In this document: positions 6,009 through 45,709 of the stretch, one piece after another | How the letters are laid out: every line of letters starts with the position of its first letter | Numbering within the stretch: position 1 is the first letter of the stretch | NCBI GenBank assembly: GCA_039030015.1 | Contig: JBCCEZ010000014.1 | Coordinates: forward strand, 15,119-79,118 | From: Gemmatimonadota bacterium | GTDB taxonomy: Bacteria; Gemmatimonadota; Gemmatimonadetes; Longimicrobiales; Gaopeijiaceae | Direction: 5' to 3' | DNA: 64,000 bases | The notes under the pieces: generated by a model | Database searches by the model: none | Seen by the model: the letters and a program-made list of their open reading frames with translations, nothing else | Told to the model about the DNA's origin: nothing | Translations under genes and position numbers: made by a program

Positions 6009-6070
6009 TCCCTCCCTCACCGGCTGCCAGTCGGGCAGCGCATGAGAATGGGCGCGTGCTCGGGCCAAAG

Positions 6071-11228: not shown

Positions 11229-11239
11229 CCGGACACGGA

Positions 11240-11270: not shown

Positions 11271-11279
11271 GCCGATTCC

Positions 11280-12782: not shown

Positions 12783-12949
12783 CGCGGGTCACTCCTGTGT
12801 GGTTCCTTCCGACAACAGGCCGCTCGGGGCATACGGTTGCAAGTGGTGACGGCCACTTCGCGCTAGCGACGTCCAGCCACGGCTCGCATTCTATCCGCCC
12901 GCTCGACGAGCGGATCTCGCCTCGCACTCCACCCCGCAGGACCGACCTT

Positions 12950-24824: not shown

Positions 24825-25001
24825 GCGGCGAGGTGTCAGAGGTGTGTACGGACACGGGGGAGATCCTCTCTCTGACTAGTGTCGGCGCCTGAGTGGGCTT
24901 CACGTAGTCCCAAATACGGATGACATCGGACGATGGGTGCCCGATCTTCATCGGCGTCCCCGCCGACGGGCCGTCACTCCCCCACGACCTCGTACTTCTC
25001 G

Positions 25002-25829
25002 ATGAGCGACACCCTCGTACCCCCTCTCGCGCTCCACGGCTGGTACATGCTCACCCAGTTCGTCGATCTCCCGACTCCGGAGGACGACGAAGACGTCGCG
25101 GCGCGAGCGGAGCGACTAGGCCAGCTCTCGGGACTCCTGGCCGACTGGTCGGACCTCGGCGACTCGGGGTGGAGCGCGCTCTACCGCGTCGTCGGTGGGG
25201 GCACGGACTACATGATCGTGCACCTGCGCCCGACCCTCGAAGAGCTCGGCGACGTCGAGCGCGAACTACGTCTCCACGGAAGCAGCCAGGATCTCGTGAT
25301 TACGGGTGACTACGTCTCGGTCGTCGAACTCGGCTTGTACGGGCACACGCTCGGGCTCGTGAAGCGGGCGCAGGCCGACGGCGTCGAGTTGGGGACGGAC
25401 GAGTGGGGGGAGCGCGTCGACGCCTTTCTCGAAGAGCAGAAGCAGACGGAGTACAGTCTCCGGCGCCTCTACCCGCGTCAGCCGGACACGATGCCGTACA
25501 TCTGCTTCTACCCGATGAACAAGCGGCGTAGCGTCGAACAGAACTGGTACACCCAGACCCTCGCCGAGCGTGCTCGCCTGATGCAGGAGCACGGCAAGAC
25601 CGGCCGGGGCTACGCCGGCAAGGTGTCCCAAATCATCTCCGGCTCCGTCGGTCTCGACGATTGGGAGTGGGCGGTGACGCTCTTCTCCGGAGATCCGATC
25701 CACTTCAAGGACCTCGTCACGGAGATGCGCTACGATGAGGTGACGTCGGTCTATGGGGAGTTCGGGAGCTTCTGGGTGGGGCACCGGATCGCAGGCGATG
25801 CGATCGCGGGGGAGTTAGCGGGCGACTGA
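25002..25829 (+). CDS. hemQ: Coproheme decarboxylase / hydrogen-peroxide-dependent heme synthase (chlorite-dismutase family)
   Basis: GWYMLTQF, MPYICFYPMNKRR, NWYTQTLAERARLMQEHG, ISGSVGLDDWEWAVTLF and MRYDEVTSVYGEFG are present. The start was moved to the ATG at 25002. Confidence 0.9.
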   Translation: MSDTLVPPLALHGWYMLTQFVDLPTPEDDEDVAARAERLGQLSGLLADWSDLGDSGWSALYRVVGGGTDYMIVHLRPTLEELGDVERELRLHGSSQDLVITGDYVSVVELGLYGHTLGLVKRAQADGVELGTDEWGERVDAFLEEQKQTEYSLRRLYPRQPDTMPYICFYPMNKRRSVEQNWYTQTLAERARLMQEHGKTGRGYAGKVSQIISGSVGLDDWEWAVTLFSGDPIHFKDLVTEMRYDEVTSVYGEFGSFWVGHRIAGDAIAGELAGD

Positions 25830-25904: not shown

Positions 25905-28900
25905 ATGACGAAGTACCTGACTCGATTCGCGCTCGTCGCCACCCTCGCGGCCTTCGGTCTACCGGACGCTGGCCACGCCCAAGTGGTCGATGCGCTCGCC
26001 CTCAAGGACCTCTCGTATCGGATGGTCGGACCGTATCGCGGCGGCCGCTCGACGGCGGCGGCCGGCTTCCTGTCCGACCAGGACAAGTGGATCCAGGGCA
26101 CGACCGGCGGAGGGATGTGGCTGACGAACGACAACGGCGTGACATGGGACCCGATCTCGGACGACTACTTCGGCGGGTCGATCGGGGCCGTCGCCGTGGC
26201 CGCGTCGGACGAGAACGTGATCTACGCCGGCACGGGATCGATGGACATCCGTGGCAATACGTCCACGGGCCGCGGCGTCTGGAAGTCGCTCGACGCCGGG
26301 CGGACGTGGCGCTTCATGGGACTCCCGGAGGCGGGGCAGATCGGCCGGATCGAGGTGCATCCCCGGGACGAGGACCTCGTGTATGTGGCGGCGCTCGGTC
26401 ATCCGTTCGGGAAGAACCCCGAACGAGGCATCTTCCGCTCGAGTGACGGGGGGGAGAGTTGGGAGCACATCCTCGCGCTGAACGACTCGACGGGTGCGTC
26501 CGATCTCACGATGAACCCGGTGAACCCACGCGAACTGTACGCCGGCATGTGGCGAGGCGAGCGGAAGCCGTGGGCGATGATCTCCGGAGCCGAAGAGGGC
26601 GGGGTCTACAAATCGAGCGACGGCGGCGACACGTGGATGAAGCTCGAAGGCGGGTTGCCGACCGGAGTCGTCGGCAAGGTCGGCGTCACCGTCTCTCCCG
26701 CGAACTCGGACCGCGTGTGGGCGATCATCGAGGCGGAGCCGGCGGGCGGTGTCTACCGCTCGGACGACGGGGGCGTGACGTGGACGCGGACCAACTCGGA
26801 GAACAACCTGCGTCAGCGCGCCTGGTACTACACCCACGTCCAGGCGGACCCGCAGGATCCGAACACGGTCTACGCACTGAACACCGCGTTGTACCGGTCG
26901 GTCGACGCCGGCGTGACCTTCACCTCGATCCCGGTCCCTCACGGGGACGTCCACGATCTGTGGATCCACCCGGACGACCCGGAGCGGATGGTCGTCGCCA
27001 ACGATGGCGGTAGTCAGGTCACGGTGAACGGTGGCGTCACCTGGTCGACGTACTTCAACCAGCCTACGGCCGAGCTCTACGACGTCATCGTCGACAACGG
27101 CTTCCCCTACCGCCTGTACGGGGCGCAGCAGGACAACACGACGATCTCCGTCCCGGCGTGGTCCTCGAGCAACACGCTCTACCCGAAAGAGCACTGGATG
27201 AACGTCGGTGGATGCGAGACGGGGCCGGTCGCGCTGGATCCGGACCGACCGCACATCGTGTACGCCGGCTGCTACGGGGGCGTGATCGACCGGTACGATC
27301 TGGAGCGTGACCAGGTCGAGAACGTGAACCTCTACCCGCAGCTCCAGCTCGGTATCGCGACGCGCGATCTCGTGCACCGCTTCCAGTGGGTCTCTCCGAT
27401 GCTCGTGTCGGCACACGATTCGGAGACCGTCTACCACGGCTCCCAGTTCGTGAACCGCTCGCGTGACGGTGGGGACACGTGGGAGTCGATCTCGCCGGAC
27501 CTCTCCACGAACAACCCGGCCCACCAGGATCAGTCGGGCGGCCCGATCAATGCGGATGTCACCGGCGTCGAGATCTTTGGGGTCGTCTTCTCGATCGCGG
27601 AGTCTCCGACCGACCCGACCGAGATTTGGGCGGGGTCGGACGATGGGCGCCTGCACATCACCCGAGACGACGGCGCGACGTGGACGGAGATCACGCCGCC
27701 GGGTATGCCGGACCTCGGCACGGTCGACGAGATCGATCTCTCGATGCATGCGCCGGGCCGAGCCTACGTGGCGGTCCAGGCGTACCGACTGGACGACTTC
27801 CGTCCCTACGTCTTCCGTACGGACGACTGGGGGGCGTCGTGGACGCAGATCACGGATGGGATCCCCGACGACTACCCCGTGCGCACGGTACGAGAGGATC
27901 CGGCGCATGAGGACCTCGTCTTTGCCGGCACCGAGTTCGGCCTCTTCGTCTCGTTCAATGGAGGCGGGGTCTGGCAGTCGCTCCAGCAGGACCTCCCCAT
28001 TACGCCGGTTACCGGTATGCGGGTGGCCCACGACGATCTCATCATCTCGACCCAGGGCCGCTCCTTCTACGTGCTCGACGACATGAGCCCGCTGCGGGAG
28101 ATCGCGTCCGGCGCGACCGGGAATGCCGCACACCTCTTCCGTCCTCGGCCCGCCTACCGGGTCAACAACGGCGGGTCAGCGGGTGGTCTCGCCGAGCTCT
28201 CGCCCGACGCCCAGCCACAGGGCGGGCTGATCCACTACTGGCTCGAAGGGGAGGCCGAGTCGGTGACCCTCGAGGTGTTGGATGCTCGAGGCTCGGTCGT
28301 TCGAGGCTTCTCGAGCGACTCCGCGTCCGCGGCCGACTTCCGCACAGGAACGATCACCCGGGAGGCTGGGCTCAACCGCGTCTCCTGGGACCTCTTCTAT
28401 CCCGGCCCGAGGATCTCCGATGACGCGGTGATCTGGGGGTACACGGGAGGCATCAAGGCGCCTCCGGGCACGTACGGGCTGCGCCTGACGGTCGGCGGCA
28501 CTGTGGTCGGGGAATCGTCGATGGACGTGCGGGCGGACCCCCGTATTCCGGAGGTCAGCCAAGCGGAGTACGTCGAGCAGTTGAGTGTCGGGCTCGCGAT
28601 CCGGGACTCGATCGACCAGGTGACGGGTGCGATCGAGACGTTGATCAGCGTGCGCGAACAGGTGGAGCAGGTGATGGCCACGGCGGTGATCGCGAATCAG
28701 GCCGCGGGCCTGCAACCGCTGGCGGATACACTGTCGGAGAACGCGCGCGTCGTGCATGAGGAGCTCATGCAGACGAACAACCGGTCCGGTCAGGATCCGA
28801 TCCGCTTCCCGCCGCAGCTCGATAACCAGCTCGTCGAGCTCTACAACTACGTGACCGGGGTGGATGGCTACATCTCGGGTGGCCGAGAGGGCCGGCCCAC

Positions 28901-29066
28901 GTCGGCCGCGTACCGGCGCTTCGACGATCTGAATGCCGACTGGACTGCGATCCGCGGGCGATACCAGTCCATCCTGGCCAACGAGCTACAACGCTTCAAC
29001 GCGGCGGTGGAGCAGTTGGGGCTGCCGGCGATCGTGCTCACGAGCGACGGGCGACTGATCTCGTAG
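25905..29066 (+). CDS. Secreted Sortilin/VPS10-type BNR (Asp-box) repeat protein
   Basis: A signal peptide is present. There are many Asp-boxes: SLDAGRTW, SSDGGESW, SSDGGDTW, SDDGGVTW, SRDGGDTW, TRDDGATW, TDDWGASW. Confidence 0.9.
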   Translation: MTKYLTRFALVATLAAFGLPDAGHAQVVDALALKDLSYRMVGPYRGGRSTAAAGFLSDQDKWIQGTTGGGMWLTNDNGVTWDPISDDYFGGSIGAVAVAASDENVIYAGTGSMDIRGNTSTGRGVWKSLDAGRTWRFMGLPEAGQIGRIEVHPRDEDLVYVAALGHPFGKNPERGIFRSSDGGESWEHILALNDSTGASDLTMNPVNPRELYAGMWRGERKPWAMISGAEEGGVYKSSDGGDTWMKLEGGLPTGVVGKVGVTVSPANSDRVWAIIEAEPAGGVYRSDDGGVTWTRTNSENNLRQRAWYYTHVQADPQDPNTVYALNTALYRSVDAGVTFTSIPVPHGDVHDLWIHPDDPERMVVANDGGSQVTVNGGVTWSTYFNQPTAELYDVIVDNGFPYRLYGAQQDNTTISVPAWSSSNTLYPKEHWMNVGGCETGPVALDPDRPHIVYAGCYGGVIDRYDLERDQVENVNLYPQLQLGIATRDLVHRFQWVSPMLVSAHDSETVYHGSQFVNRSRDGGDTWESISPDLSTNNPAHQDQSGGPINADVTGVEIFGVVFSIAESPTDPTEIWAGSDDGRLHITRDDGATWTEITPPGMPDLGTVDEIDLSMHAPGRAYVAVQAYRLDDFRPYVFRTDDWGASWTQITDGIPDDYPVRTVREDPAHEDLVFAGTEFGLFVSFNGGGVWQSLQQDLPITPVTGMRVAHDDLIISTQGRSFYVLDDMSPLREIASGATGNAAHLFRPRPAYRVNNGGSAGGLAELSPDAQPQGGLIHYWLEGEAESVTLEVLDARGSVVRGFSSDSASAADFRTGTITREAGLNRVSWDLFYPGPRISDDAVIWGYTGGIKAPPGTYGLRLTVGGTVVGESSMDVRADPRIPEVSQAEYVEQLSVGLAIRDSIDQVTGAIETLISVREQVEQVMATAVIANQAAGLQPLADTLSENARVVHEELMQTNNRSGQDPIRFPPQLDNQLVELYNYVTGVDGYISGGREGRPTSAAYRRFDDLNADWTAIRGRYQSILANELQRFNAAVEQLGLPAIVLTSDGRLIS

Positions 29067-29534: not shown

Positions 29535-31016
29535 TTACGTCCCGCAGAAGGTCGTGTACGATCCGAAGCTGTCCGGGGCGCGCTCGGTAAACGCTCCCAA
29601 ACCATCACGCTCCTCGAAGGGGCGAGCGAGTACGGTGAGGAGGCGGCGAAACGGTTCGAGTTCGCCGTCGATGGCCGCGTCGAGGGCCGCCTGAACGTTG
29701 TGATTCCGAGGGATGTACAGCGGGTTCACGCGGTCCATGGCGTCCGCCCGCGACGCGGCGTCGCCGCCCTCTCCCTCGAGTCGGGTGAGCCAGCGATCCA
29801 TCCAACCGTCGATCTCGCCCTTCTCTCGGAAGAGCATACGCACGGGGGTACGATCGCCTCGCGCGGCGCTGGAGAGCCGCCGGAAGAAGGCCGTGAAGTC
29901 CACGTCCTTCCCTTCCAATACGCCGAAGAGCTCACGGATCAGCTCCTCGTCGCCAGGCAGCGCCTCGAGCAAACCTAGCTTGGCCCGAACGCGCTCGAGC
30001 CAGCGCTCGAGATAGATGCCGGCATAGGCGTCGACCTCGGTCGTCGCCAACTCGATGGCGCGCTCCTCGTCGTCCGGTTCGATGAGAGGAAGCAGCGTCT
30101 CGGCGAGCCGCGCGAGATTCCACTGAGCGATGGCGGGCTGATTGCCGTACGCGTACCGGCCGTGTCGATCGATCGAGCTGAATACGGTCCCCAGGTCGTA
30201 CCCGTCCATGAACGCGCAGGGCCCGTAGTCGATCGTCTCCCCGGCGACCGTCGTGTTGTCGGTGTTCATGACCCCGTGCACGAAGCCGATCGACATCCAG
30301 TGGGCGACGAGCGCGGCCTGGCGATCCCGTACCGCGCCGAGCAGCCGCAGGTATCGGTCGTCCGCATCCACGAGGTCCGGGAAGTGTCGAGCGATCGTGT
30401 ACTCCGCGAGGAGGCGCACCCGCTCGCTCTCGCCGCGTGCAGCGAAGAACTGAAAGGTGCCCACCCGGATATGGCTCGAGGCCACCCGCGCGATGATCGC
30501 CCCGGGCTCGACGCTTTGGGGGCGCCGCACCTCCTCACCCGTCGTGATGGCCGCGAGCGCCCGTGTCGTCGGCACCCCGAGCGCGTGCATCGCCTCGCTC
30601 ATCAGATACTCGCGCAGCACCGGCCCCAGGCCGGCTTTGCCGTCTCCTCCGCGGGAGAAGGGTGTCCGGCCGGACCCCTTGAGCTGGAGGTCCCAGCGCG
30701 CGCCGGCTCGGTCGATCAGCTCGCCCAGGAGGAGCGCGCGGCCGTCCCCGAGCTGGGGTACGAAGTTGCCGAACTGATGCCCCGCGTACGCCTGAGCCAG
30801 TGGGGTCGTGCCTGCCGGGGGATCCATGCCGGCCAAGAGTCTCGCGCCGTCGTCGCTGGCCAAGACGTCGGCGTCGAGACCGAGCTCGGCCGCGAGCGGG
30901 TGATTGAGCTGCACGACCCGTGGCTCGGGCACCGAAGCGCCCTGCCACGGGACGTAGAAGCCCTCGAGCTCAGTCGCGTAACTCTGCTCGAACCCGAAGA
31001 TGTTCTCGACGCTCAC
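29535..31016 (-). CDS. selO: Protein adenylyltransferase SelO (YdiU/UPF0061)
   Basis: AYAGHQFGNFVPQLGDGRALLLGE, LKGSGRTPFSR, REYLMSEAMHALGVPTTRAL, HGVMNTDN and the C-terminal ...TFCGT are present. The GTG start overlaps the upstream TGA (GTGA). Confidence 0.95.
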   Translation of the reverse strand: MSVENIFGFEQSYATELEGFYVPWQGASVPEPRVVQLNHPLAAELGLDADVLASDDGARLLAGMDPPAGTTPLAQAYAGHQFGNFVPQLGDGRALLLGELIDRAGARWDLQLKGSGRTPFSRGGDGKAGLGPVLREYLMSEAMHALGVPTTRALAAITTGEEVRRPQSVEPGAIIARVASSHIRVGTFQFFAARGESERVRLLAEYTIARHFPDLVDADDRYLRLLGAVRDRQAALVAHWMSIGFVHGVMNTDNTTVAGETIDYGPCAFMDGYDLGTVFSSIDRHGRYAYGNQPAIAQWNLARLAETLLPLIEPDDEERAIELATTEVDAYAGIYLERWLERVRAKLGLLEALPGDEELIRELFGVLEGKDVDFTAFFRRLSSAARGDRTPVRMLFREKGEIDGWMDRWLTRLEGEGGDAASRADAMDRVNPLYIPRNHNVQAALDAAIDGELEPFRRLLTVLARPFEERDGLGAFTERAPDSFGSYTTFCGT

Positions 31017-34000
31017 CCCCCACTGCGCCTCACCGACGGGGCCCCGGTCGCCATGACCTCGTCATGGAGTCCATCGACCACGCCCGCCATACGTTCGATC
31101 TCCGCCGCGATCGGCCCGAGCTCAGCGCGGCCTGCGGCGACGGTTTGGCGATGGAGTTGGGTCGGCCCGTACGTGCTGTTGAGGCCGCGGAAGCCGAGAC
31201 CGAGTCGGCTGCCTGGAGTGGGCGGGCTGCGCTCACCGATCTCGCCGCGCGCCTCGCTCCCCTGCATCTGCTCCCGGAGGTCGAGGAGTGCTTGGCGGGT
31301 ATCGTACAGACGCTGGTGCAGCGCAGCGTCTGGGTTGTCGGCTCGGCTCAGCGACGTCTGCAGCGCCTCGATCATGTCGATCGACTCGGAGAGCGAGTTG
31401 CCGGCCTCGGTGAGGTCCATTTGGAACGCCTCGACCTCGCCGCGGAAGGTCTCGATAACCGCGTCCGACACGCGGGGCAGTGCTCCTTCTTCGAGCGCCG
31501 CGACTGCAAACTGGACCGGACCGTCGAGGACGGTCACGGCTCCTGCTTCGACTTTGACGAGCTCCGCCGTGTAGCTGCCGGGCCGAACGTTGAAGCCTCC
31601 GCCACCACCGCCGCCGCCGGGGTTGATCATGCCGTTGGAGGCATAATCCAGCTCCCAGTTGACCCGGTGTACACCCGCGGAGGTCGGACCACTCACGCGG
31701 TTGATCACCGTGCCGTCCATCGCACGCACGACGACGTGTACGCTCGGCCCTTGCTCACGCATCTCAGCCTCGATCGCGTCGTACCCTGGGAAGGGGATGT
31801 CCTGTCCGTCCGGGATGGCTCGCTCGCGGGCCTGCCGCTCGGCTTCGAGCGACCGATAGCCGTCACGCAGGTGATAGGTGAAGACCGCTCCGTACGGCGG
31901 GTTCGACGCCTGGTAGTCGCCGTCTCCTTGGTCATACGAGACGTTGTCCTCGATGAACTGGAAGGCGGTCCTCGTATCGAAGAGCGCTCCTTCACCAGCG
32001 AGCCGCTCCGACGTCATCGCACGCAGCGGCGTGTAGTCGTCCAGGATGTAGATGCCGCGGCCGAAGGTGCCCCCGACGACGTCCTCGTGGTCCCGCTGGA
32101 TGTCGACGTCACGGAAGGAGATCGTCGGCGCGCCGGGGATCTTCACCCACTGCGCACCCCCGTCCACCGTCACGAAGAGTCCGAACTCCGTGCCCGCGAA
32201 GAGGAGGTTCGGCTCGACGTGATCCTGCACCATCCGCCAGACGAGGTGACGCGCCGGCAGGTCGCCCGTGATCGACGTCCAGCTCTGACCGCGGTCCGTG
32301 CTCTTCACCAGGTATGGAGTGAAGTCTCCGTACTTGTGGTTGTCGAGAGCGACGTAGACGGTGTTCGCGTCGAACATGTCGGCCTTGATGTCGTTCACGA
32401 ACGCGGTGGCCGGGACGCCGGGGAGGTCCCCGACTTCGATCTGGCGCCAGTTGTCCCCGGTGTCCTCGGTGACCCAGAGGAGACCATCGTCCGTGCCCGC
32501 GTAGATGACGCCTTCCTCGACCGGCGATTCACCGAGTGAGGTGATCGTGTTGTAGTTCGACATGGCGCCGACATCCCATGCGTTGTCCCAGCTCTGCACG
32601 CGGCCCATGTGCTCGATCTCGATCCGCTCCTGGCTCCGGGTCAGGTCGCCGGAGATCGGCGTCCACGAATCCCCGCGGTCGTCGGTCCTCCACACGCGGT
32701 ACGAGGCGAAGTAGATCCGGGTGGGGCTGTGCGGGCTGACCTCGATGGGAGCGTCCCAGTTGAAGCGCTCGAACGGCTCACCTTCCCGCGCCTGGGGCTG
32801 GATGAAGACCTGATCTCGCGTCGTCAGGTCGACGCGGTGTAGGCCGCCCTGCTGCGTTTCGGCGTAGATGATGTTGGGGTTGCCCGGCTCCGTTGCCGAG
32901 TCGTGTCCGTCGGCGCCGAGCGTCGCGAACCAGTCGGCGTTACGGATGCCGTGATCGAAGGTCGTCCGCGACGGTCCCCCGTTCGACCCGTTGTCCTGCA
33001 TGCCCCCATAAACGTTGTAGAAGGGGCGGCTGTCATCGACCGAGATCTTGTAGTACTGCATCACCGGAAGATTGCGGACGTAGCGCCACGTCTCGGTCAG
33101 ATCGAACGTCTCGTAGAGGCCGCCGTCCGATCCGATCAGGACGTACTCCGGGTTGCTCTTCTTGAACGCGATCGCGTGATCGTCGACGTGCTTGTCCTGA
33201 ACATTCATCCGGGCGAAGTCGGCCCCGTGATTGTCCGAGACGAGCGTATAGTTGTTCACCAGGTAGAGTCGACCTTCCTGGTGCGGCGAGGCGTAGAGCT
33301 CCTGGTAGTAGTGGGGGCCCGTTCCGCCGGAGACCGCGTCGGACATCTTCCGCCACGACTCGCCTCGGTTCTCGGACATCCACACACCACCTTCGGCGCG
33401 GATCGTTTCGATGGCCGCGTAGACCCGGTCGGGATTCTGGGGGGAGATCGCGAGCCCGATCTTGCCGAGCGGACCGCCGGGCAGGCCCGTGGTCAGCTGC
33501 GTCCACGTCTCGCCGCCGTCCTCCGACTTGTGAAGTCCGCTGCCCGGTCCACCGCCGAAGTAGGCCGCGACCGTGCGGTGCCGGTCCCATGTCGCTGCGA
33601 TCAGGACGTCCGGGTTCCGCGGGTCGATCACGATGTCGGTGACGCCGGTCCACTCGCCTTCTCCGAGGACCTTCCGCCAGCTCTCCCCGCCGTCGGTCGT
33701 CTTGTAGAGACCGCGCTCACCGCCGGGGCTCCATAGGGGTCCCTGGGCGGCTACCCACACCACGTCGGAGTTCTCCGGGTGGACGATGATCGTGGAGAGG
33801 TGGTTGGTCCCGCCCAACCCCATGTTCGTCCAAGTGCGCCCGTCGTCCGTGCTCTTGTAAATCCCGTCGCCGAAGCCGACGTGGCGACCTCCGACGTTCT
33901 CGCCGGTCCCGACCCAGACGGTCGACGGCGTGCTCGGGTCGATCGTCACGTCGCCGATCGAATACGACGCCTGGTCGTCGAAGATCGGCTCGAACGTCGT

Positions 34001-34237
34001 GCCGTTGTTCGTCGTTTTCCAGACACCACCCGACCCGACGGCGACGTACCAGACGTTCTCGTCATGCGGGTGGATGTCGATGTCCGAGACTCGGCCGCTG
34101 TTGGTGGCGGGTCCGATTCCTCGGAGAGATAGCCCGGAGATCCGGGTGTCGGCGAGCGTACTCTCCTGAGCCTGAAGCGCGGCCGGGAGTGCGACGACGA
34201 AGAGGGCGAGCAGGAGGGTCGAGACGAGCGACTTCAT
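31013..34237 (-). CDS. Secreted Sortilin/VPS10-type BNR (Asp-box) repeat protein (paralog of 25905-29066)
   Basis: The signal peptide is MKSLVSTLLLALFVVALPAALQAQE. Asp-boxes include STDDGRTW, TTDGGESW, SEDGGETW, TDDRGDSW and STDRGQSW. The ORF-track start at 34420 was replaced by 34237. Confidence 0.9.
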   Translation of the reverse strand: MKSLVSTLLLALFVVALPAALQAQESTLADTRISGLSLRGIGPATNSGRVSDIDIHPHDENVWYVAVGSGGVWKTTNNGTTFEPIFDDQASYSIGDVTIDPSTPSTVWVGTGENVGGRHVGFGDGIYKSTDDGRTWTNMGLGGTNHLSTIIVHPENSDVVWVAAQGPLWSPGGERGLYKTTDGGESWRKVLGEGEWTGVTDIVIDPRNPDVLIAATWDRHRTVAAYFGGGPGSGLHKSEDGGETWTQLTTGLPGGPLGKIGLAISPQNPDRVYAAIETIRAEGGVWMSENRGESWRKMSDAVSGGTGPHYYQELYASPHQEGRLYLVNNYTLVSDNHGADFARMNVQDKHVDDHAIAFKKSNPEYVLIGSDGGLYETFDLTETWRYVRNLPVMQYYKISVDDSRPFYNVYGGMQDNGSNGGPSRTTFDHGIRNADWFATLGADGHDSATEPGNPNIIYAETQQGGLHRVDLTTRDQVFIQPQAREGEPFERFNWDAPIEVSPHSPTRIYFASYRVWRTDDRGDSWTPISGDLTRSQERIEIEHMGRVQSWDNAWDVGAMSNYNTITSLGESPVEEGVIYAGTDDGLLWVTEDTGDNWRQIEVGDLPGVPATAFVNDIKADMFDANTVYVALDNHKYGDFTPYLVKSTDRGQSWTSITGDLPARHLVWRMVQDHVEPNLLFAGTEFGLFVTVDGGAQWVKIPGAPTISFRDVDIQRDHEDVVGGTFGRGIYILDDYTPLRAMTSERLAGEGALFDTRTAFQFIEDNVSYDQGDGDYQASNPPYGAVFTYHLRDGYRSLEAERQARERAIPDGQDIPFPGYDAIEAEMREQGPSVHVVVRAMDGTVINRVSGPTSAGVHRVNWELDYASNGMINPGGGGGGGGFNVRPGSYTAELVKVEAGAVTVLDGPVQFAVAALEEGALPRVSDAVIETFRGEVEAFQMDLTEAGNSLSESIDMIEALQTSLSRADNPDAALHQRLYDTRQALLDLREQMQGSEARGEIGERSPPTPGSRLGLGFRGLNSTYGPTQLHRQTVAAGRAELGPIAAEIERMAGVVDGLHDEVMATGAPSVRRSGG

Positions 34238-34462
34238 GGCACGAGACTCCACGTAGGGCGTGCGGTGGTCGGGAACCTCAGAAACGGCTGCGGCGCGGCG
34301 CGCTTCGAGGGGCCGCGAAACTACAGCCGGAGGAGACGAGCGTCGATACGCGGTGCCGTTTCGTTCAAGGCTGTCGTCCTCCTCCCCGACTACTCTAGGG
34401 ATCCCGCCGCAGCCCGCCATGAGCTGCGCGCTGATCGATGGGCCTAGTCGAGGAGCCTCCCC

Positions 34463-35841: not shown

Positions 35842-36063
35842 CGACGACGGGTTGCTGGTTCCGACCATGTCGGTCTATCATCCGCCGCGAAGAAAGGCGA
35901 TGGGGCTACGGAAGCCGGTCCAAATCCGGCGCGGCCCCGCCACTGTAGGAGGCCAAGCACGACGCGCGCGTCGCGCTGGTTCGGCCCGCTCAACGGCCAC
36001 TGGGGGTGATTCCCGGGAAGGCGAGCGGTGCTGCCTCGAGCCAGGAGACGGGTTCCGTCGCCG
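35842..36063 (+). promoter_or_regulatory. Cobalamin (B12) riboswitch aptamer (Rfam RF00174-like)
   Basis: Conserved core strings are in the correct order. GGAAGCCGGTCCAAATCCGGCGCGGCCCCGCCACTGTAGG spans about 35909-35949. GCCACTG is at 35996-36002, GGGAAGGC at 36015-36022, and the B12-box-like AGCCAGGAGACGGG at 36039-36052. A candidate P1 pairs CGACGACGG (35842-35850) with CCGTCGCCG (36055-36063). Boundaries are approximate. Confidence 0.8.
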
Positions 36064-36138
36064 TTACCCAGAACACCCTCGCGGGAGGGGCGGGTTTCGA
36101 GGCGTGGCCCTTCGTGGCCGCGACAGGATCGGTGCCCC

Positions 36139-36161
36139 TTCCGTCTCGGTACAGGACGGAA
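36139..36161 (+). promoter_or_regulatory. Hairpin sequestering the putative Shine-Dalgarno of the cobN-like gene (candidate expression platform)
   Basis: TTCCGTC-tcggtacag-GACGGAA forms a 7-bp stem. The 3' arm contains the purine-rich GGACGGA located 5 nt upstream of the GTG at 36166. Confidence 0.4.
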
Positions 36162-36165
36162 TCTC

Positions 36166-39100
36166 GTGCACTTCCTCACCGGCCTTGAAGGGATTCGACG
36201 CCCTCGCGCTTCCCGACCCGCGGGTCTCCGACTTGTCGTCGCGGCGCTCGCGCTGAGTGGATGCTCCTCGGAGGGCGGAACGACGCTCATCATCGATTCA
36301 CCGTCGGGCGTGAACCGCTTCGTGCAAGCTGCGCATAGCGTGCACGAGCGCGAGGTGGCGGACGACCTTCCCGAGACTCGGTGGATCATCCGTACCACGC
36401 GGCAGGTCGTCGACGCGCCGGTAGACACCGTGCGCGCCTGGCTCGAGGAGGCGGATCGGGCCGTGATCCGGCTTGCGTACGAGGAGGTGGCCGAGAAGCT
36501 GACCGAGGCGATGCCCCCGGTTGACGCGCGACCTGGGCCCCTCTGGTTCTTCAGCTCTGAGCCGTCGCTGCTTCGCGAAACCACGGGATCGGATGGCCAG
36601 CGCCACCTCGCCGACCGCGACGACGACTTTTTCCGAAGGCTCGCGGATGGTGTCGACTCGATTGGGGTCGCTGGGCCCGAACTGAAAGCGTGGGAGCACG
36701 CGGACCTTCTACTGGACGCCAAGGGAGAGGAGGCCGCCACCCGGCTCCTGGACTTCCTCGCCGCGGCGGAGGCGGAGGGTGAGAGTGTCGCCCTCGCGTC
36801 ATCGTCGTTGCCCGAATCGGAGGCGCTCGACGAGTTGTACGCCCTCGACGGCCTCCCCGACTTCGGTGATGACGCACCCGTCGTCGGGATCATCGACTTC
36901 GATTCGTATGCTCTCAACAGCGAGTCGGTGATCCTCGACAGCATCGCAGCTGCCCTCTCTCGTCACGGCATTCGACCGCGCCCGGTGATCGCGGAGTGGG
37001 GCGAGAGAACCGCCGATGCGATGATGGAGCACTTTGCGGGCGGCCCCACCGGTGAGCCGGAGGTCGACGCCGTGATCAGCTTGCAGACCTTCTTGCTGGG
37101 CGGCGCGGGGGGGCGGGAGGCTGCGGACTCGCTTCTGGCTTCGTGGGGGGTCCCCGTCTTTCGTGCCATCCGGATGACGGACTTCAGCCCGCTTGAGTGG
37201 AGACTTTCAGCGGAGGGCATTCCGTGGGCGAGCGTCTACCACCAGGTCGCCCTTCCCGAGCTGCAGGCCGTCATCGAACCAACCGTCGTTGCGGCCGAGT
37301 CGACGGACGAGTTGGACGAACTGACGGGGGCCCGCCGTGCGTTGTACGCGCCGATTCCTGAGCAGGTCGAGATGCTCGCGGAGCGCACCGCACGTTGGGT
37401 CAATCTCCGACGGACGGAGAACGAAGACCGCCGCGTCGCCTTCATCTACTACAACCACCCTCCCGGGCGTCAAAACATCGGCGCCGACAACCTGAACGTG
37501 ATCGGGTCGTCGGTCCGGATCCTCGAGCTCCTTCGCGACAATGGGTACGACCTGGGGGACTGGTCTGAGGAGCGGTGGCCGTGGGAGCCGGACTCTCTGG
37601 CAGCTCAGTTGGTCCGTCGGGGGGTCAACGCAGGGATGTATGGCGCGGGGATGCTCGACTCGCTCGTCGCGAGCGGTGCCGTGCTTGTGCCCGCGGAGCA
37701 GTACGAGACGTGGTTCCGTGCCCTCCCCGAACTCGTGCAGGTCGAGATCGAAGACGGGCCGCTCGGATACCTTCAGGCGATCCTCGAGGAGTACATCGTC
37801 AGTGGTGCGCATGCGAATCGCTCGGAGGAGACCGAGCGGATCGTGCATGAGATCATCGAGGGAGAAATCGACCTCGTCTTCGCGCAGATGGAGAGCTTCT
37901 TCGACGCCTTCAGCCCCTTCGCCCCAGAGATGCGTACGGGACCCGATGTGTTGGCGGAAGTAGAGCGGGAGGCCAGGCAGGTCCTCGACGAGGGAGCCCC
38001 GCTCAATGGTCTACTCGAGGCGAAGCGGCGCTTCCTGGATCTCGGGATCGAGGCGCTGAGCGGGTGGGGCCCGCCGCCGGGCAACGTTATGCGTGTGACT
38101 CGAGCGGGGCAGGACTACCTCGTGGTGCCTGGAGTGCAGGGTGGCAACGTCTTCCTCGGGCCTCAGCCGGAGCGCGGATTCGCTGCGGATCCGGAGAAGG
38201 TGCACTCGAGTACGCTGGTCGCGCCGCCGCACCAGTACCTCGCCGTGTACGCCTACCTCTCCCACGAGTTCGGCGCGGACGCCGTTGTGCACGTCGGACG
38301 TCACTCGTCGTACGAATGGCTTCCCCGCAAACAGGTCGGACTCTCTGCGTGGGATCACCCGGTAGCGGTGCTGCAGGGGATGCCGTCCATCTACCTCTAC
38401 ACCGTGGATGGGGTTGGGGAGGGTCTTCAGGCCAAGCGTCGTGGGCTCGCCGCGCTCATCGATCACCTCACGCCTCCGATCAAGACGACCGAGCTCTACG
38501 GAGACCTCCTCGCCCTCCATCAACTCCACGACGGCTACTACGCCCAGGAGGCGCCGGAGCGAAGGAGCGCCATCGTCGAGGAGATCCTCGAGATCTTGGG
38601 GCGACCGGAGCTTGCCGACCTCAGGGAGGAGATGGAGGCGGAGAACGGCGGCCTGCCGGTGACGCAAATGGGACCTGACCTCCTTGTGCACGAGGTCGGT
38701 CACGAGACCGGCGCGTTTCGAGAGACGATGATGCCCTTCGGGCTTCACACGTTTGCGCGCCGTTGGTCCGAGGAAGAGGCCAACATGCTCGCGGAGTCCA
38801 TGGCGGGCTTCCAGGTCTCGGCCGACGCTCCGAATCGAGCTCAGGGGCTGGCCGAGGCGACGGCCGCGAACGTCGCGGCCATCCACGCGAGCACGGAAGC
38901 CGAGGGGGAGAGCCTTCTCCGGGCGCTCGCCGGTGAACGGGTGGAGCCGGGAAGTGGGAACGACCCGATTCGCACCCCGAGCGTACTTCCTACCGGCCGG
39001 AACTTCCACGCGTTGGACGCGACGCTCGTCCCGACTTCTCTCGCGATGCGCCTCGGGAACGCGATGGCGGATCAGAGTCTGGAACGGCTGCGGCGCGAGA

Positions 39101-40665
39101 ACGACGACCCGAACCACACACCCGAGCGGGTCAGCGCGGTCCTATGGGCTGTCGAAACAACGCGCGATGAGGGCGCCACCGTAGGTTTCGTGCTCCAACT
39201 GCTGGGGCTCCGAGCGGTGTGGGACGTCCGAGGGAAGGTCGAGCGCCTCGAGCGGATTCCGCTCCGCGAACTCGGCCGACCGAGGGTCGACGTGACGATG
39301 ATCACGTCGGGTCTCTTCCGGGACATCTTTTCCCCGGTACTCCATCTGCTGGACCAGGGTACGCGACTCGCGATCGCGGGATCTGCTCGGACGATCCTCA
39401 CTGAGCAGCCGGGTTTGGCCCCGGCTCTTCGCGCGGCGCTCTTCGACATCCCTGCGGAGTCTTGGGGCACGGAGTCCCTGGCTGAAAACCACGTGGCGGG
39501 ACATTGGTTGGCCGAAGTGAGCGAACGACTCGACGAGGTGACGGCGAGTGGCGCTACCGTGAGAGACGCGCAGCGGGAGCGGGCGGGTCGAGTCGCCCAG
39601 GCGAGGATCTTCGGACCGTCGGTCGGCGACTATGGAGCCGGCTTGAACTACCTGATTGGGCAACCGTGGACGTGGGACGACCGCGGTGAGCTCTCCGGTC
39701 ACTACCTCCGGAACATGCAGTACGCATACGGCGGTGAGGTGTGGGGGGACCCAATGGCGGCCGACGGTCTGGAGCGTAAGCTCGAGGGCACGGAAGCCGC
39801 CTTCCACTCGCGGTCGTCGAACCTCTACGGGGTCGCGGACAACGACGACTTTTTCGACTACTTCGGTGGCTTGTCGATGGCTGTGGAAGCCGTGACCGGC
39901 ACGGCCCCGAAGAGCTTCATCCTCCAGTCTACCGATCCGAACAACGTGAGCGTCGAGCGGCTCCAGACCTTCCTCGGCCGAGAGCTGAGAGCGCGGTACT
40001 ACAACCCGGAGTGGATCGAGGGGCAGATGGACGAGGGGTACGACGGTGCCCGAACCATCTCGAACAAGTTCGTCGAGTTCCTTTGGGGCTGGCAGGTCAC
40101 GAACCCGGACATCGTACGCGATTGGATGTGGACGGAGATCCAGGACGTCTACGTCGAGGACCGGTACGGCCTTGGACTCGAGGAGTGGTTCGACGCTGGG
40201 GATCGAGGCTACGCGCTCCAGAATGTGCTGGCGATCCTCATGACGGCTGCCGAGCGGGGCTTTTGGGGGGCGACGGAGGAAGAGCTCGCGCAGATCGCCG
40301 ACCGACTCGGTACACTGGTCAACGAGATCGGCGTCGCGTGCTCGACGCATCTCTGCGGGAACACCGACGTGATGGAGTATGCCGAGGCTCGGATGACACC
40401 GGAGCTCCAGGACAGCTTCCGAGAGGCGCTCGACGAGGCACGCTTCGCGTGGGCCGACACCGATGGGCCGGTGGACGAGACTGCGGACGGTGATGTGACC
40501 GATCCGTCGGCAGGTGAGCCCTCTGCCGTGGTGACTGAGGTCACGCCGACCCCCGAAGAGTCCGCACCGACGAATACGCCGCGGAACGTCGCCCTCGGGC
40601 TTCTCCTGGCCCTCCTGCTCGCGGCGTTCGGTACCGGGGTGCTGCGCGGACGAGGTCATCGATGA
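36166..40665 (+). CDS. CobN/Mg-chelatase-family protein (HmuS-like), predicted lipoprotein with a C-terminal TM anchor
   Basis: CobN signatures are HVGRHSSYEWLPRKQVGLS, GEGLQAKRRGLAALIDHLTPP, LPTGRNFHALD, VLWAVETTRDEGATVGFVLQLLGLRAVWD and RPRVDVTMITSGLFRD. The start was set to the GTG at 36166 because the ORF-track start (36028) lies inside the riboswitch. The N-terminus RLVVAALALSGC is a signal plus lipobox. The C-terminus NVALGLLLALLLAAFGTGVL is a TM helix. Confidence 0.9.
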   Translation: MHFLTGLEGIRRPRASRPAGLRLVVAALALSGCSSEGGTTLIIDSPSGVNRFVQAAHSVHEREVADDLPETRWIIRTTRQVVDAPVDTVRAWLEEADRAVIRLAYEEVAEKLTEAMPPVDARPGPLWFFSSEPSLLRETTGSDGQRHLADRDDDFFRRLADGVDSIGVAGPELKAWEHADLLLDAKGEEAATRLLDFLAAAEAEGESVALASSSLPESEALDELYALDGLPDFGDDAPVVGIIDFDSYALNSESVILDSIAAALSRHGIRPRPVIAEWGERTADAMMEHFAGGPTGEPEVDAVISLQTFLLGGAGGREAADSLLASWGVPVFRAIRMTDFSPLEWRLSAEGIPWASVYHQVALPELQAVIEPTVVAAESTDELDELTGARRALYAPIPEQVEMLAERTARWVNLRRTENEDRRVAFIYYNHPPGRQNIGADNLNVIGSSVRILELLRDNGYDLGDWSEERWPWEPDSLAAQLVRRGVNAGMYGAGMLDSLVASGAVLVPAEQYETWFRALPELVQVEIEDGPLGYLQAILEEYIVSGAHANRSEETERIVHEIIEGEIDLVFAQMESFFDAFSPFAPEMRTGPDVLAEVEREARQVLDEGAPLNGLLEAKRRFLDLGIEALSGWGPPPGNVMRVTRAGQDYLVVPGVQGGNVFLGPQPERGFAADPEKVHSSTLVAPPHQYLAVYAYLSHEFGADAVVHVGRHSSYEWLPRKQVGLSAWDHPVAVLQGMPSIYLYTVDGVGEGLQAKRRGLAALIDHLTPPIKTTELYGDLLALHQLHDGYYAQEAPERRSAIVEEILEILGRPELADLREEMEAENGGLPVTQMGPDLLVHEVGHETGAFRETMMPFGLHTFARRWSEEEANMLAESMAGFQVSADAPNRAQGLAEATAANVAAIHASTEAEGESLLRALAGERVEPGSGNDPIRTPSVLPTGRNFHALDATLVPTSLAMRLGNAMADQSLERLRRENDDPNHTPERVSAVLWAVETTRDEGATVGFVLQLLGLRAVWDVRGKVERLERIPLRELGRPRVDVTMITSGLFRDIFSPVLHLLDQGTRLAIAGSARTILTEQPGLAPALRAALFDIPAESWGTESLAENHVAGHWLAEVSERLDEVTASGATVRDAQRERAGRVAQARIFGPSVGDYGAGLNYLIGQPWTWDDRGELSGHYLRNMQYAYGGEVWGDPMAADGLERKLEGTEAAFHSRSSNLYGVADNDDFFDYFGGLSMAVEAVTGTAPKSFILQSTDPNNVSVERLQTFLGRELRARYYNPEWIEGQMDEGYDGARTISNKFVEFLWGWQVTNPDIVRDWMWTEIQDVYVEDRYGLGLEEWFDAGDRGYALQNVLAILMTAAERGFWGATEEELAQIADRLGTLVNEIGVACSTHLCGNTDVMEYAEARMTPELQDSFREALDEARFAWADTDGPVDETADGDVTDPSAGEPSAVVTEVTPTPEESAPTNTPRNVALGLLLALLLAAFGTGVLRGRGHR

Positions 40666-41228
40666 CGGCATCGCTTCTTCCCATCCTGCACGGCTTCGTG
40701 CAGGCGCTTCTCGGGCCGGTGCTGCTGACGCTCTTCTTGTCGACCGTCTACCTGACGTACGAGTGCGGCGTCTTCCTACGTGAAGCGTGGTCTCGAAGGG
40801 GCGGGCGCCTCGGGAGCGCCGCCGCCGCGGACCACCCGGGCGACCTCGCCGAGGCGCACCGATTGCTGGCTGACACGGAAGCCGGCTTCGCTCGGCGGCT
40901 GGAGCGCACCGACATTCTCGCTCGCCTCGGCCCGGCCCTCGGCCTCGCCGGTACGTTGATCCCCTTGGGGCCAGGGCTTTCCGGTCTCCAGCGAGGCGAT
41001 GTCTCGGTCCTCGCCAGCGCGTTGACCGTGGCGTTCGACACGACGGTGTTGGGGCTGGTTGTCGGCGTCGTGGCCTTCGTCCTTTCTCGCGTGCGCCGGC
41101 GTTGGTACGAGTCTGAGTTGGACTCGCTAGCGGAGCAGTGGGAGGAGTCGCTTCCGGGCGCCGCGGCGAACGACGGGGTAGGGGACGGCGAGTCCGGCGA
41201 TGGACTTCGCGCGAAGGGCTCAACGTGA
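40662..41228 (+). CDS. MotA/TolQ/ExbB-family proton-channel protein
   Basis: ATGA overlap with the cobN-like stop. Three TM helices are present, with ILARLGPALGLAGTLIPLGPGL and TTVLGLVVGVVAFVLSRV resembling the conserved MotA_ExbB core. Confidence 0.85.
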   Translation: MTASLLPILHGFVQALLGPVLLTLFLSTVYLTYECGVFLREAWSRRGGRLGSAAAADHPGDLAEAHRLLADTEAGFARRLERTDILARLGPALGLAGTLIPLGPGLSGLQRGDVSVLASALTVAFDTTVLGLVVGVVAFVLSRVRRRWYESELDSLAEQWEESLPGAAANDGVGDGESGDGLRAKGST

Positions 41229-41599
41229 ACAAGGGGCCGCGCCTGCGTCGCAGACCTCGCCGAGTGCTCGGTACCGGTCGGTTCTCCCGGGAGCACGACG
41301 ACGATCCGTTAACCGGGCTCGCGAACCTTGTCGACCTGATGCTCGTCTTCGCCTGTGGCCTTTTGATTGCCGTCTTCCTCTCGCTCGACCTCGCCGACCT
41401 CCTTCAGCTTCCTGAGGAAGAGCGAGCCGCCGTTCTCGAGTCCCTCCGGAACGCGCAGGAGCTCGATGCCATCGACACCCGACCCGAGAACGTCACGCAG
41501 AGTGAGATCGAGAGCGCCGGCCAGTATCGGTCGGTCGGGACGGTATATCGTGACACGTTGACCGGCCGGATGTTCGTCATAGAGGGCGACGGCCGCTGA
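41225..41599 (+). CDS. ExbD/TolR-like single-pass protein (DUF2149-like)
   Basis: GTGA overlap with the exbB-like stop. The basic N-terminus is followed by DPLTGLANLVDLMLVFACGLLIAVFL, an ExbD-type TM segment, and then a short soluble domain. The DUF2149 assignment is from memory. Confidence 0.7.
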   Translation: MNKGPRLRRRPRRVLGTGRFSREHDDDPLTGLANLVDLMLVFACGLLIAVFLSLDLADLLQLPEEERAAVLESLRNAQELDAIDTRPENVTQSEIESAGQYRSVGTVYRDTLTGRMFVIEGDGR

Positions 41600-44656: not shown

Positions 44657-45709
44657 ATGACTCCAACCGCACATACCGTGGTGATCGGTGCCGGCGTGAG
44701 CGGTCTCGCCACGGCCCGAACGCTTCAAGCGGCGGGCGTCGACGTCGTCGTGCTCGAAGCTCGTGACCGGGTCGGCGGGCGGCTGCGTTCCGTGCCCCTC
44801 GGAGACGCGGGGGTCGACCTAGGCGCAACGTGGTTCTGGGCGAACGAACCCCGGGTGGTCGCCCTGGTCGAGGAGTTCGGCTTGGCGACCCATGCGCAAC
44901 ATCTGGCCGGCGACGCCTTGTACCAGATCCCCGGTGTTGTCCAACGAATCGCGGGGAATCCGATCGATGGACCCGCGTGGCGACTCTCCGCGGGCACCCA
45001 GCGCCTGGCCGAAGCGCTCGCGGAATGTCTCGACGAAGGCACGGTGCGCCTCGAGCATGTCGTGTCCGCGATCCGAGCCGTCGATGGGCTCCTCTCGGTC
45101 GAGGGTTCGTTCGGATCGATCGAGGGGCGACACGTTGTGGTCGCGCTGCCGCCGGTTCTGGCCGTGCACGCTCTGGACTTCGATCCCCCCCTCCCGGAAT
45201 CGACCCGGGCGATTGCAGGCCAGGTCCCTGTCTGGATGGGGTCGATGACGAAGGTCGTGATCCGGTACGCGACCCCGTTCTGGAGGGAGAGGGGGCTGGC
45301 CGGCGCGGTGATGAGTCATGCAGGGCCGATGCGGGAGATGCACGACATGAGCGGCCCGGCCGGAGACCCGGCCGCGCTCTTCGGATTCGCGCCGCCACTC
45401 CATCCCCAAGCCCCGACGGTCTCGGAGGACGCCGTACGGCGGCAGCTCACCGAGCTCTTCGGCGCGGACGCCCCCGAGCCCGTCGACGTCGCCATCACAG
45501 ACTGGCGCATGGAACGCTTCACGACCCCGCCCGGAGCGGTGTCACTCCAGTCGTACGAGACGTATGGCCATCCGGTCTTCCAAACCCCGACGTGGGAGGG
45601 GCGCCTCCACTGGTCGTCGACCGAGACATCTCGTGACTTCCCCGGGCACATCGAAGGAGCGCTCTCGGCCGCAGCACGGACCGCCGAAGCGATCCTCTCG
45701 GGCGCGTAA
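44657..45709 (+). CDS. FAD-dependent amine oxidase (flavin monoamine oxidase family)
   Basis: VVIGAGVSGLATARTL...VVVLEARDRVGGR is the dinucleotide-binding motif. The C-terminal FPGHIEGALSAA is also present. Confidence 0.9.
   Translation: MTPTAHTVVIGAGVSGLATARTLQAAGVDVVVLEARDRVGGRLRSVPLGDAGVDLGATWFWANEPRVVALVEEFGLATHAQHLAGDALYQIPGVVQRIAGNPIDGPAWRLSAGTQRLAEALAECLDEGTVRLEHVVSAIRAVDGLLSVEGSFGSIEGRHVVVALPPVLAVHALDFDPPLPESTRAIAGQVPVWMGSMTKVVIRYATPFWRERGLAGAVMSHAGPMREMHDMSGPAGDPAALFGFAPPLHPQAPTVSEDAVRRQLTELFGADAPEPVDVAITDWRMERFTTPPGAVSLQSYETYGHPVFQTPTWEGRLHWSSTETSRDFPGHIEGALSAAARTAEAILSGA

Follow-up and report, generated by a model that had tools for sequence, protein, structure and literature searches.

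In Bacteroides thetaiotaomicron, haem is dechelated in the periplasm by the membrane-bound protein HmuS (PMC12583661). Its gene is followed in the hmu operon by those for HmuT, the MotA/ExbB protein HmuU and the DUF2149 protein HmuV (PMC12094164), and HmuS proteins carry N- and C-terminal membrane segments that CobN and ChlH lack (PMC13227078); according to the authors of the HmuS work, annotation is not yet possible for most homologues. Rodionov 2003, as related in PMC6460266, gave the name BtuS to a CobN-like protein of B12-regulated btu loci that differs from both CobN and ChlH. In the portions of that account cited here, BtuS is given a proposed role in metalloporphyrin salvage, not B12 synthesis, the B. 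fragilis proteins BtuS1 and BtuS2 are predicted to be periplasmic and anchored, and the experiments on these two concern haem iron in Bacteroides only. In P. aeruginosa, the Zur-regulated operon PA1922-25 encodes, besides a receptor and a CobN-like protein, an 'ExbD' and a hypothetical protein (PMC4542158, PMC8456098, PMC11761036). Here we analysed an operon at positions 35,842 to 41,599 of a 64,000-nt stretch of Gemmatimonadota DNA (contig JBCCEZ010000014.1, positions 15,119 to 79,118; assembly GCA_039030015.1), hereafter the window, from whose first letter positions are counted. It consists of a cobalamin riboswitch followed by the genes for a CobN-like protein predicted to be exported, a MotA-like protein and a DUF2149 protein (the trio), and it may encode a periplasmic enzyme for cobalt tetrapyrroles or corrinoids. 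A first-pass annotation, made from the letters of the window alone, had called attention to it. Its statement that HmuS, a MotA/ExbB protein and a DUF2149 protein occur together in Bacteroidota hmu loci is confirmed by PMC12094164, and its description of the locus as a distinct variant was overstated; B12-regulated exported CobN-like proteins had been named BtuS in 2003, by the definition transmitted in PMC6460266.

A cobalamin riboswitch heads three overlapping genes

The search of the 64 kb window against Rfam returned RF00174 as its sole match and no other Rfam family. The match lies at 35910-36049 on the forward strand (60.3 bits, E 1.9e-12, gathering score 31.5, model positions 47-167), and an nhmmer profile seeded with Rfam-confirmed relatives pushed the start of the riboswitch to 35855 (Table 1). 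A gap of 116 nt separates its 3' end from the GTG at 36166; riboswitch and chelatase gene share a strand, and the same leader position is found in ~33 homologous loci. By its class, the riboswitch should turn the operon off when corrinoid cofactor is plentiful. The sequence that follows the aptamer holds GGGUUCCGUC, which in the minimum-free-energy fold of the leader is paired with the Shine-Dalgarno (SD)-like AGGACGGAAUCUC standing directly ahead of the GTG start; no intrinsic terminator was found in the leader by the terminator scan. From this folding model we infer only that the pairing may act as the expression platform.

The three genes are joined by 4-nt overlaps, ATGA at 40662-40665 between the first and second open reading frames (ORFs) and GTGA at 41225-41228 between the second and third, both read directly in the sequence. 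A Pfam scan of the large ORFs between 23.9 and 54 kb, ~12 kb on either side of the operon, found no ChlI, ChlD, CobS or CobT AAA+ or vWA gene, and likewise no gene for TonB, a TonB-dependent receptor, a hemophore or another Cob/Cbi protein. When families of B12-related neighbours gathered from homologous loci were compared by BLAST with all ORFs of the window, there were no matches. The first-pass annotation had thus read the leader, both overlaps and the absence of AAA+, TonB, receptor and cob/cbi genes within 10 kb correctly, and its further claim that riboswitch control ties the operon to corrinoid metabolism is supported by RF00174 and by the B12 gene context described below.

The CobN-like protein belongs to a deep separate clade with predicted export signals

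The product of the first ORF, to which CobN/ChlH-family motifs had been ascribed, matches that family over its full length (PF02514, E 1.3e-258). Its opening residues, MHFLTGLEGIRRPRASRPAGLRLVVAALALSGCSS, form a signal region with a lipobox: the N-terminus, MHFLTGLEGIRRPRASRPAGLRLVVAALALSGC, comprises a basic n-region, a hydrophobic core and the lipobox LSGC. Because this lipobox signal peptide is combined with a C-terminal membrane helix, the catalytic body should face the periplasm, with the bulk of the protein held there by a lipid anchor and by the C-terminal helix, whose basic tail would be cytoplasmic. The earlier placement of the large subunit outside the cytoplasm is thereby supported as a prediction. 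The arrangement is shared by the relatives. Signal peptide, C-terminal transmembrane (TM) helix and basic tail were found together in 78 of 83 clade members versus 4 of 40 other CobN matches, the remaining 36 of which had neither a signal peptide nor a TM helix. Most clade members have a type I signal peptide, followed by the conserved mature start TLFGVVSDRSA.

Homologues fell into two sharply split groups, one of ~78 proteins of 1400-1530 amino acids (aa) scoring 750-1770 bits and the other of ordinary CobN proteins of 1200-1300 aa scoring <400 bits. Matches in the PDB were ChlH (380 bits), HmuS (370 bits) and CobN (346 and 334 bits), all three being roughly as distant as one another. In a neighbour-joining tree (rough, 511 core columns, no bootstrap support) the clade formed its own deep branch, with the window protein in a Gemmatimonadota/Acidobacteriota sub-branch. 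We conclude that, within the CobN/ChlH/HmuS superfamily, the CobN-like protein belongs to a deeply branching clade of its own.

This placement bears on the idea that the protein is the organism's true cobaltochelatase, serving de novo synthesis of B12 with the membrane pair as a stand-in for CobS and CobT. NCBI annotates as CobN a protein from a Gemmatimonadota metagenome-assembled genome that is 100% identical to it, the third active-site position holds a CobN-type Asp (see below), genes of the clade adjoin cbiA/cobB and cobO, which flank the chelation step, in ~20 loci, and in Thioalkalivibrio the CobN-like gene lies within a de novo B12 cluster. Yet the signal peptide or lipobox and the C-terminal anchor would put the body of the protein away from both hydrogenobyrinic acid a,c-diamide and ATP, its best score against the NCBIfam equivalogs was 695 versus a cut-off of 1619 with scores below the cut-off for all nine CobN/BchH models, and the core tree separates the clade from CobN. 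On these three grounds a cytoplasmic cobaltochelatase was rejected, and we regard the cobaltochelatase explanation as highly unlikely.

The chelatase active site appears intact

In the clade alignment H713 (in GRHSSYEW) and E752 (in VDGVGEG) of the CobN-like protein are invariant, and they are the equivalents of HmuS His538/Glu577 and of CobN H554/E593, the last two of which adjoin two Co2+ ions in the CobSTN cryo-electron microscopy structure (bioRxiv 10.64898/2026.07.21.739949). The third site was mapped by alignment. It reads D or N followed by an invariant Asp in the clade (DN[DN]DxFD; D1227/D1228 in the window protein) and DSDD in genuine CobN, where D1100 is the third residue (9uk9 numbering); its last position is His in HmuS and ChlH, in contrast to Asp in the clade, so that the HmuS Asp1208/His1209 dyad is not kept. 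The active site thus looks intact in sequence and, at the third position, CobN-like rather than haem- or Mg-like. That His, Glu and Asp do not vary, although identity within the clade has fallen to 35-40%, speaks for catalysis having been retained.

The same residues can be weighed for a haem dechelatase with HmuS function, which would take iron from haem and for which the riboswitch would be incidental. Both the architecture and the partner genes are those of HmuS-HmuU-HmuV, and the His/Glu site is conserved. Against this, an invariant Asp replaces HmuS His1209, and the phmmer alignment to HmuS (9d26) begins only at query residue 327 and HmuS residue 268, the HmuS head with its Met79/His254 haem site and Met-rich insertion being unalignable to the window protein. 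Further, the clade is as far from HmuS as it is from ChlH or CobN, hmuY and hmuR are absent from the window, and riboswitch control and B12-related neighbours are the rule across phyla. A haem-specific HmuS orthologue was rejected on the riboswitch and B12 context, the Asp in place of His1209 and the equal distance to ChlH and CobN, and the probability that we attach to a haem dechelatase is very small.

An ExbB/TolQ-fold protein and a DUF2149 protein accompany the chelatase

Three hydrophobic segments are evident in the hydropathy profile of the MotA-like protein. An AlphaFold2 (AF2) model from a 35-sequence alignment reached a mean predicted local distance difference test score (pLDDT) of 86.8, and Foldseek with this model returned only ExbB, TolQ and PomA chains among its top 45 matches, full-length, with probability ~1 and TM-scores of 0.4-0.56. 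Invariant motifs of the family are LGLxGTLIPLGPGL, AFD(TT)xxGL and RRRWY. The second of these contains D126 (AFDTTVLGL), an invariant Asp within the third membrane helix, additional to the Asp of the DUF2149 protein; we know of no acidic residue at the matching third-helix position of ExbB or TolQ.

The third product matched PF09919 (DUF2149), as did 24 of 24 of its relatives. It has a basic N-terminus, one TM helix (ANLVDxMLVFACGL) with an invariant Asp37, a variable linker and a conserved C-terminal GxVYRDPxTGKLILI hairpin. Pfam ExbD (PF02472) was matched neither by the protein nor, at E<=1, by its relatives (0 of 24), and a PDB profile search with DUF2149 gave no match. Comparison by hhalign, with provisional reference sequences for E. 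coli ExbD and TolR, yielded probabilities of 5% to ExbD and 0.9% to TolR over the membrane helix only, and at this low probability it placed D37 on ExbD D25 and TolR D23. Foldseek with the AF2 model, a poor one (pLDDT 68.7), found no fold match. The DUF2149 protein is not a member of the ExbD/TolR family by any test that we ran.

The first-pass annotation had described the second product as a MotA/TolQ/ExbB-type protein with three TM helices, which PF01618 and the Foldseek matches bear out, and the third as ExbD/TolR-like. For the latter, the topology and the in-register membrane Asp stand, and the family membership does not. A dedicated MotA/ExbB-type partner of the chelatase, as had been claimed, is supported, its companion being DUF2149.

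The trio is a widespread part of B12 regulons

One genome per GTDB species was scanned with two clade-specific peptide patterns, which gave at least 586 loci, and the best 80 were examined. The clade is present in at least 586 species representatives of >10 phyla; the examined loci came from Gemmatimonadota, Acidobacteriota, Nitrospirota, Nitrospinota, Verrucomicrobiota, Planctomycetota, Myxococcota, Binatia and Campylobacterota and from many Gamma- and Betaproteobacteria. MotA-like and DUF2149 genes stood directly downstream of the chelatase gene in ~76 of 86 loci, most junctions in the trio being overlapping or <=30 nt, and the trio is thus kept as a neighbourhood in related genomes, as the survey suggested in the first-pass annotation was meant to show. 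A same-strand cobalamin riboswitch was found upstream in at least 60 of the ~74 loci with enough upstream sequence. Riboswitches were called with an iterated nhmmer profile, an alignment of four riboswitches by MAFFT being too poor for a covariance model. The calls were compared with Rfam on 19 loci; 12 of 13 sampled calls were confirmed, the weak one at L011 was not, and two riboswitches at L015 had been missed by nhmmer, so the counts are lower bounds. The L015 pair (L015:9463-10017) is divergent and back to back, one riboswitch facing a btu/cob operon and the other the trio. At L004 (Massilia timonae), a group II intron (RF00029) with a reverse transcriptase ORF lies at 5939-8090, ~1.5 kb upstream of the riboswitch.

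The commonest layout, at ~32 loci, is the bare riboswitch-chelatase-MotA-DUF2149 order of the window, with no receptor; at 27 further loci the riboswitch heads a longer operon. The receptor-less, riboswitch-controlled trio, which had been taken for a distinct variant, is therefore the most frequent form of the clade. At L054 the chelatase gene (9668-14407, forward strand) and the MotA/DUF2149 pair (1335-2572, reverse strand) are 7 kb apart, each behind its own RF00174 riboswitch. The closest relative (58% identity) lies in a cobC-cobQ-cobO-cobC-[trio]-bluB/cobT cluster. When the neighbours at 84 loci were clustered and then assigned by Pfam, the TonB-dependent receptor was the commonest (37 loci), followed by BtuF (27), CbiA/CobB (21), CobO (20), BtuD-type ATPase, CobC/D-type aminotransferase and CobU (17 each), BluB-type nitroreductase and CobQ (13 each), CobT (12), CbiB (11), BtuC and CobS (9 each), CN_hydrolase (8), and reductase-type PepSY_TM and CbiZ (7 each); no recurrent AAA+ chelatase-partner or TonB family was found among them. 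The trio is a core part of the B12 regulon; its carriers include methylotrophs and marine Gammaproteobacteria as well as Nitrospirota, Nitrospinota, Myxococcota, Verrucomicrobiota, Acidobacteriota and Gemmatimonadota.

The frequency of receptors among the neighbours raises the main competing explanation, namely that the MotA-like and DUF2149 proteins are a specialised surrogate for ExbB and ExbD that energises BtuB-type outer-membrane receptors, while the CobN-like protein works separately from them in the periplasm, and with no motor, as an enzyme or binding protein for corrinoids. The ExbB/TolQ fold of the MotA-like protein fits such a role, the literature models for HmuU/HmuV and PA1924 point the same way (PMC12583661, PMC4542158, PMC8456098), and HmuS is active in vitro without HmuU and HmuV. 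Set against these points, a TonB gene was neither found in the window scan nor recurrent among the 84 loci, ~32 loci including the window have the pair and the chelatase with no receptor, in most loci the pair overlaps the chelatase gene or lies no more than 30 nt away from it, DUF2149 lacks the periplasmic domain of ExbD, and nearly all chelatases of the clade have the C-terminal TM anchor. We hold this explanation to be unlikely. That the pair stays joined to the chelatase even where receptor and TonB are lacking favours a motor for the enzyme over one for outer-membrane transport, a question that bears on all such modules (Hmu, PA1922-25 and BtuS).

Neighbours of the Btu and salvage type are relevant to a second alternative, in which the CobN-like protein is catalytically inert and serves in the periplasm as a receptor or chaperone for corrinoids, or belongs to an import route across the inner membrane. 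It would pass whole corrinoids on to BtuF/BtuCD or to another carrier, their release being driven by the proton-motive force. It would account for the strong co-localisation with btuF, btuCD and cytoplasmic salvage enzymes that need intact corrinoids, and for the order riboswitch, BtuF-like, CobN-like at L007, a Gemmatimonadota relative. It is harder to square with the invariant His, Glu and Asp in so diverged a clade, and the trio often stands alone, far from btu genes; we rate it as improbable.

Several further arrangements were recorded. Seven loci without a riboswitch (L030, L031, L048, L063, L064, L078, L084) have the trio followed by a CbiZ-like amidohydrolase of 400-465 aa and a nitrilase-superfamily amidase of ~300 aa, both with signal-peptide-like N-termini (e.g. 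L030:6795-8953); an exported CbiZ would be unusual, and the two enzymes suggest a periplasmic set for dismantling corrinoids. In methylotroph loci, a multi-TM protein of 189-207 aa recurs right after the B12 riboswitch and receptor (L037:9290-9862, L060:6882-7451 and 18739-19311, L067, L074, L075, L076). It had no match in Pfam or NCBIfam and may be a small B12 or cobalt carrier, perhaps BtuM-like. At L088:1815-2767, a MotA_ExbB gene for a 213-aa protein overlaps a DUF2149 gene, with no CobN-like gene on the part of the metagenome contig seen, and the 213-aa MotA class includes a Methanobacterium protein; the MotA/DUF2149 pair may therefore also work without a chelatase.

A proposed periplasmic enzyme for cobalt tetrapyrroles or corrinoids

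Our favoured reading makes the CobN-like protein an enzyme of the periplasm for the processing of cobalt tetrapyrroles or corrinoids, likely as a dechelatase, with the proton-driven pair in place of an ATPase motor; we consider the case for it to be evenly poised. Upon shortage of B12 or cobalt, the CobN-like enzyme would be displayed in the periplasm and would act there on incoming cobalt tetrapyrroles or corrinoids. The likeliest reaction would be removal of the metal under reduction, or else a related step of demetallation or remodelling, because of the analogy with HmuS (haem to protoporphyrin IX and Fe2+) and because of the exported CbiZ and amidase and the PepSY_TM reductase-type neighbours. 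The product would then be re-used by a salvage or biosynthesis pathway. As for energy, the MotA-like/DUF2149 pair would be a small proton-driven motor of the 5:2 type that works on the chelatase via its C-terminal helix and supplies conformational work, as the AAA+ partners ChlI/ChlD or CobS/CobT do in the cytoplasm; by analogy with these systems we infer that the pair may energise the chelatase. The scheme was drawn up because a B12-responsive leader, an exported chelatase fold, partners with an ExbB fold and an Asp-bearing helix, and a B12 uptake and salvage context are found together.

Several points weigh against this scheme. Taking cobalt out of a corrin is chemically hard, and its removal by an enzyme is to our knowledge without precedent; our literature searches returned no described cobalt or corrinoid dechelatase, nor any report linking DUF2149 to B12. 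Many of the neighbours (btuFCD, cobO, cobU/S/T) suggest import of intact corrinoids, for which free cobalt would be of little use. Purified HmuS dechelates haem with NADH in the absence of HmuU and HmuV, so the motor is perhaps not needed for catalysis. The core of the clade is 33-37% identical to each of HmuS, ChlH and CobN, so that HmuS is no nearer to it than the other two, and DUF2149 has no detectable homology to ExbD/TolR beyond the one helix. Finally, the leader did not fold better than shuffled sequences (z -0.55).

The more specific proposal, in which a chelatase fold outside the cytoplasm is coupled to a minimal proton-driven ExbB-like/DUF2149 motor for cobalt removal or another de- or remetallation of corrinoids or corrinoid-like complexes, is put forward tentatively and must be called doubtful. 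If true, it would make the protein the first cobalt dechelatase and open the tightly complexed pool of environmental cobalt and corrinoids to bacteria of many phyla, and it would represent a new means of energising tetrapyrrole metal chemistry outside the cytoplasm. The 2025 result on HmuS as a haem dechelatase makes the B12-linked clade a concrete candidate for a cobalt or corrinoid scavenging or remodelling step.

Genes surrounding the operon

Between ~24 and 54 kb, Pfam identified HDOD, chlorite-dismutase/HemQ-family, two Sortilin/BNR, SelO and beta-lactamase/M15 fusion proteins, and further an amine oxidase, an alpha/beta hydrolase, a BTAD/FGE-sulfatase protein and an ABC ATPase. The gene for the beta-lactamase/M15 fusion starts 81 nt 3' of the DUF2149 gene, with no terminator found between the two by the terminator scan. 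As a fourth member of the operon it was rejected, since it recurs next to the trio in no homologous locus. The two Sortilin-Vps10/BNR genes lie on either side of SelO. The HemQ-family gene, ~10 kb upstream of the operon, and the flavin amine-oxidase-family gene, ~3 kb downstream, possibly encode haem-pathway enzymes.

Table 1. Features of the operon and of its surroundings in the window.
Feature	Positions	Strand	Evidence and remarks
Cobalamin riboswitch aptamer RF00174	35855..36049	+	Rfam and nhmmer; holds GCCACTG and the B12-box-like GAGCCAGGAGAC
Leader, putative expression platform	36050..36165	+	GGGUUCCGUC (36050-36059) can pair with SD-like AGGACGGAAUCUC
CobN/ChlH-family protein, 1499 aa	36166 (GTG)..40665	+	PF02514 CobN-Mg_chel, E 1.3e-258, 861 bits, full-length
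Lipobox Cys33 of the CobN-like protein	36262-36264	+	Lipobox LSGC
C-terminal TM helix of the CobN-like protein, aa 1475-1493	40588-40644	+	Single hydrophobic helix, then RGRGHR
ExbB/TolQ-fold MotA-family protein, 188 aa, 3 TM	40662..41228	+	PF01618 MotA_ExbB, E 4e-9
DUF2149 single-pass membrane protein, 124 aa	41225 (GTG)..41599	+	PF09919, E 5e-12, 46.4 bits vs gathering 27.1
Beta-lactamase/M15 fusion, 813 aa	41680-44121	+	Class-C beta-lactamase/penicillin-binding protein (PBP)-like domain and VanX-type M15 D-Ala-D-Ala dipeptidase
Chlorite-dismutase/HemQ-family gene	24933-25829	+	
Sortilin-Vps10/BNR protein (~1050-1135 aa)	25905-29066	+	
SelO adenylyltransferase gene	29535-31016	-	
Sortilin-Vps10/BNR protein (~1050-1135 aa)	31013-34420	-	
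Flavin amine-oxidase-family gene	44657-45709	+	

Comparison with known systems

The locus typifies a large and widespread type of module known as BtuS, HmuS-U-V and PA1923-25. It shares with HmuS (Bacteroidota hmuYRSTUV, PDB 9d26) an exported, anchored CobN/ChlH-family protein (~1450-1500 aa, signal at the N-terminus, TM helix at the C-terminus), the MotA/ExbB and DUF2149 genes alongside, the lack of a ChlI/ChlD-type partner and the site-2 His/Glu. It differs in being under a B12 riboswitch, whereas hmu is under iron or haem control, in lacking the HmuY hemophore, the HmuR receptor and HmuT, in the exchange of HmuS His1209 for Asp and the unalignable head region described above, and in forming a separate deep branch at ~36% core identity. 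To BtuS, in the 2003 definition as given in PMC6460266, it can be likened by description: a CobN-like protein, a separate clade and a riboswitch.

PA1922-PA1925, compared by description, is similar in that an exported CobN-like protein and two small membrane proteins are encoded in one operon, and unlike in its zinc (Zur) control and in the receptor that is always present. Its layout was met at L087 (Brevundimonas, 5041-11620), where genes for a Dyp peroxidase, a TonB-dependent receptor, a CobN-like protein, a 158-aa protein and a DUF2149 protein follow one another with no riboswitch. Proteins of this L087 type form a second exported CobN-like clade (P0086, P0090, P0104, P0108) of ~1285 aa with hydrophobic N- and C-terminal segments, which retains the HmuS/ChlH-type His (STDHPFE).

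With CobNST the window protein has in common the PF02514 fold, the H/E/D pattern with Asp at the third site, membership of a B12-riboswitch regulon and, in the clade, the neighbours cobB/cbiA and cobO. CobN is soluble, cytoplasmic and driven by a motor of CobS (AAA+) and CobT (vWA), whereas the window protein is predicted to be exported and anchored, has no AAA+ partner within ~12 kb on either side and falls below all CobN equivalog cut-offs. Finally, the pair resembles the 5:2 motors ExbB-ExbD(-TonB) and TolQ-TolR(-TolA) in the ExbB/TolQ fold of the MotA-like protein and in the build of DUF2149, a single-pass protein with its N-terminus in and an invariant Asp in the membrane that lines up with ExbD D25 and TolR D23. 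Unlike ExbB and TolQ, the MotA-like protein is short (~145-190 aa); DUF2149, unlike ExbD and TolR, has no periplasmic domain and no homology to them at the level of hidden Markov models; and where those motors act with TonB or TolA, the trio has no third subunit of this type, the C-terminal helix of the chelatase being the candidate third partner.

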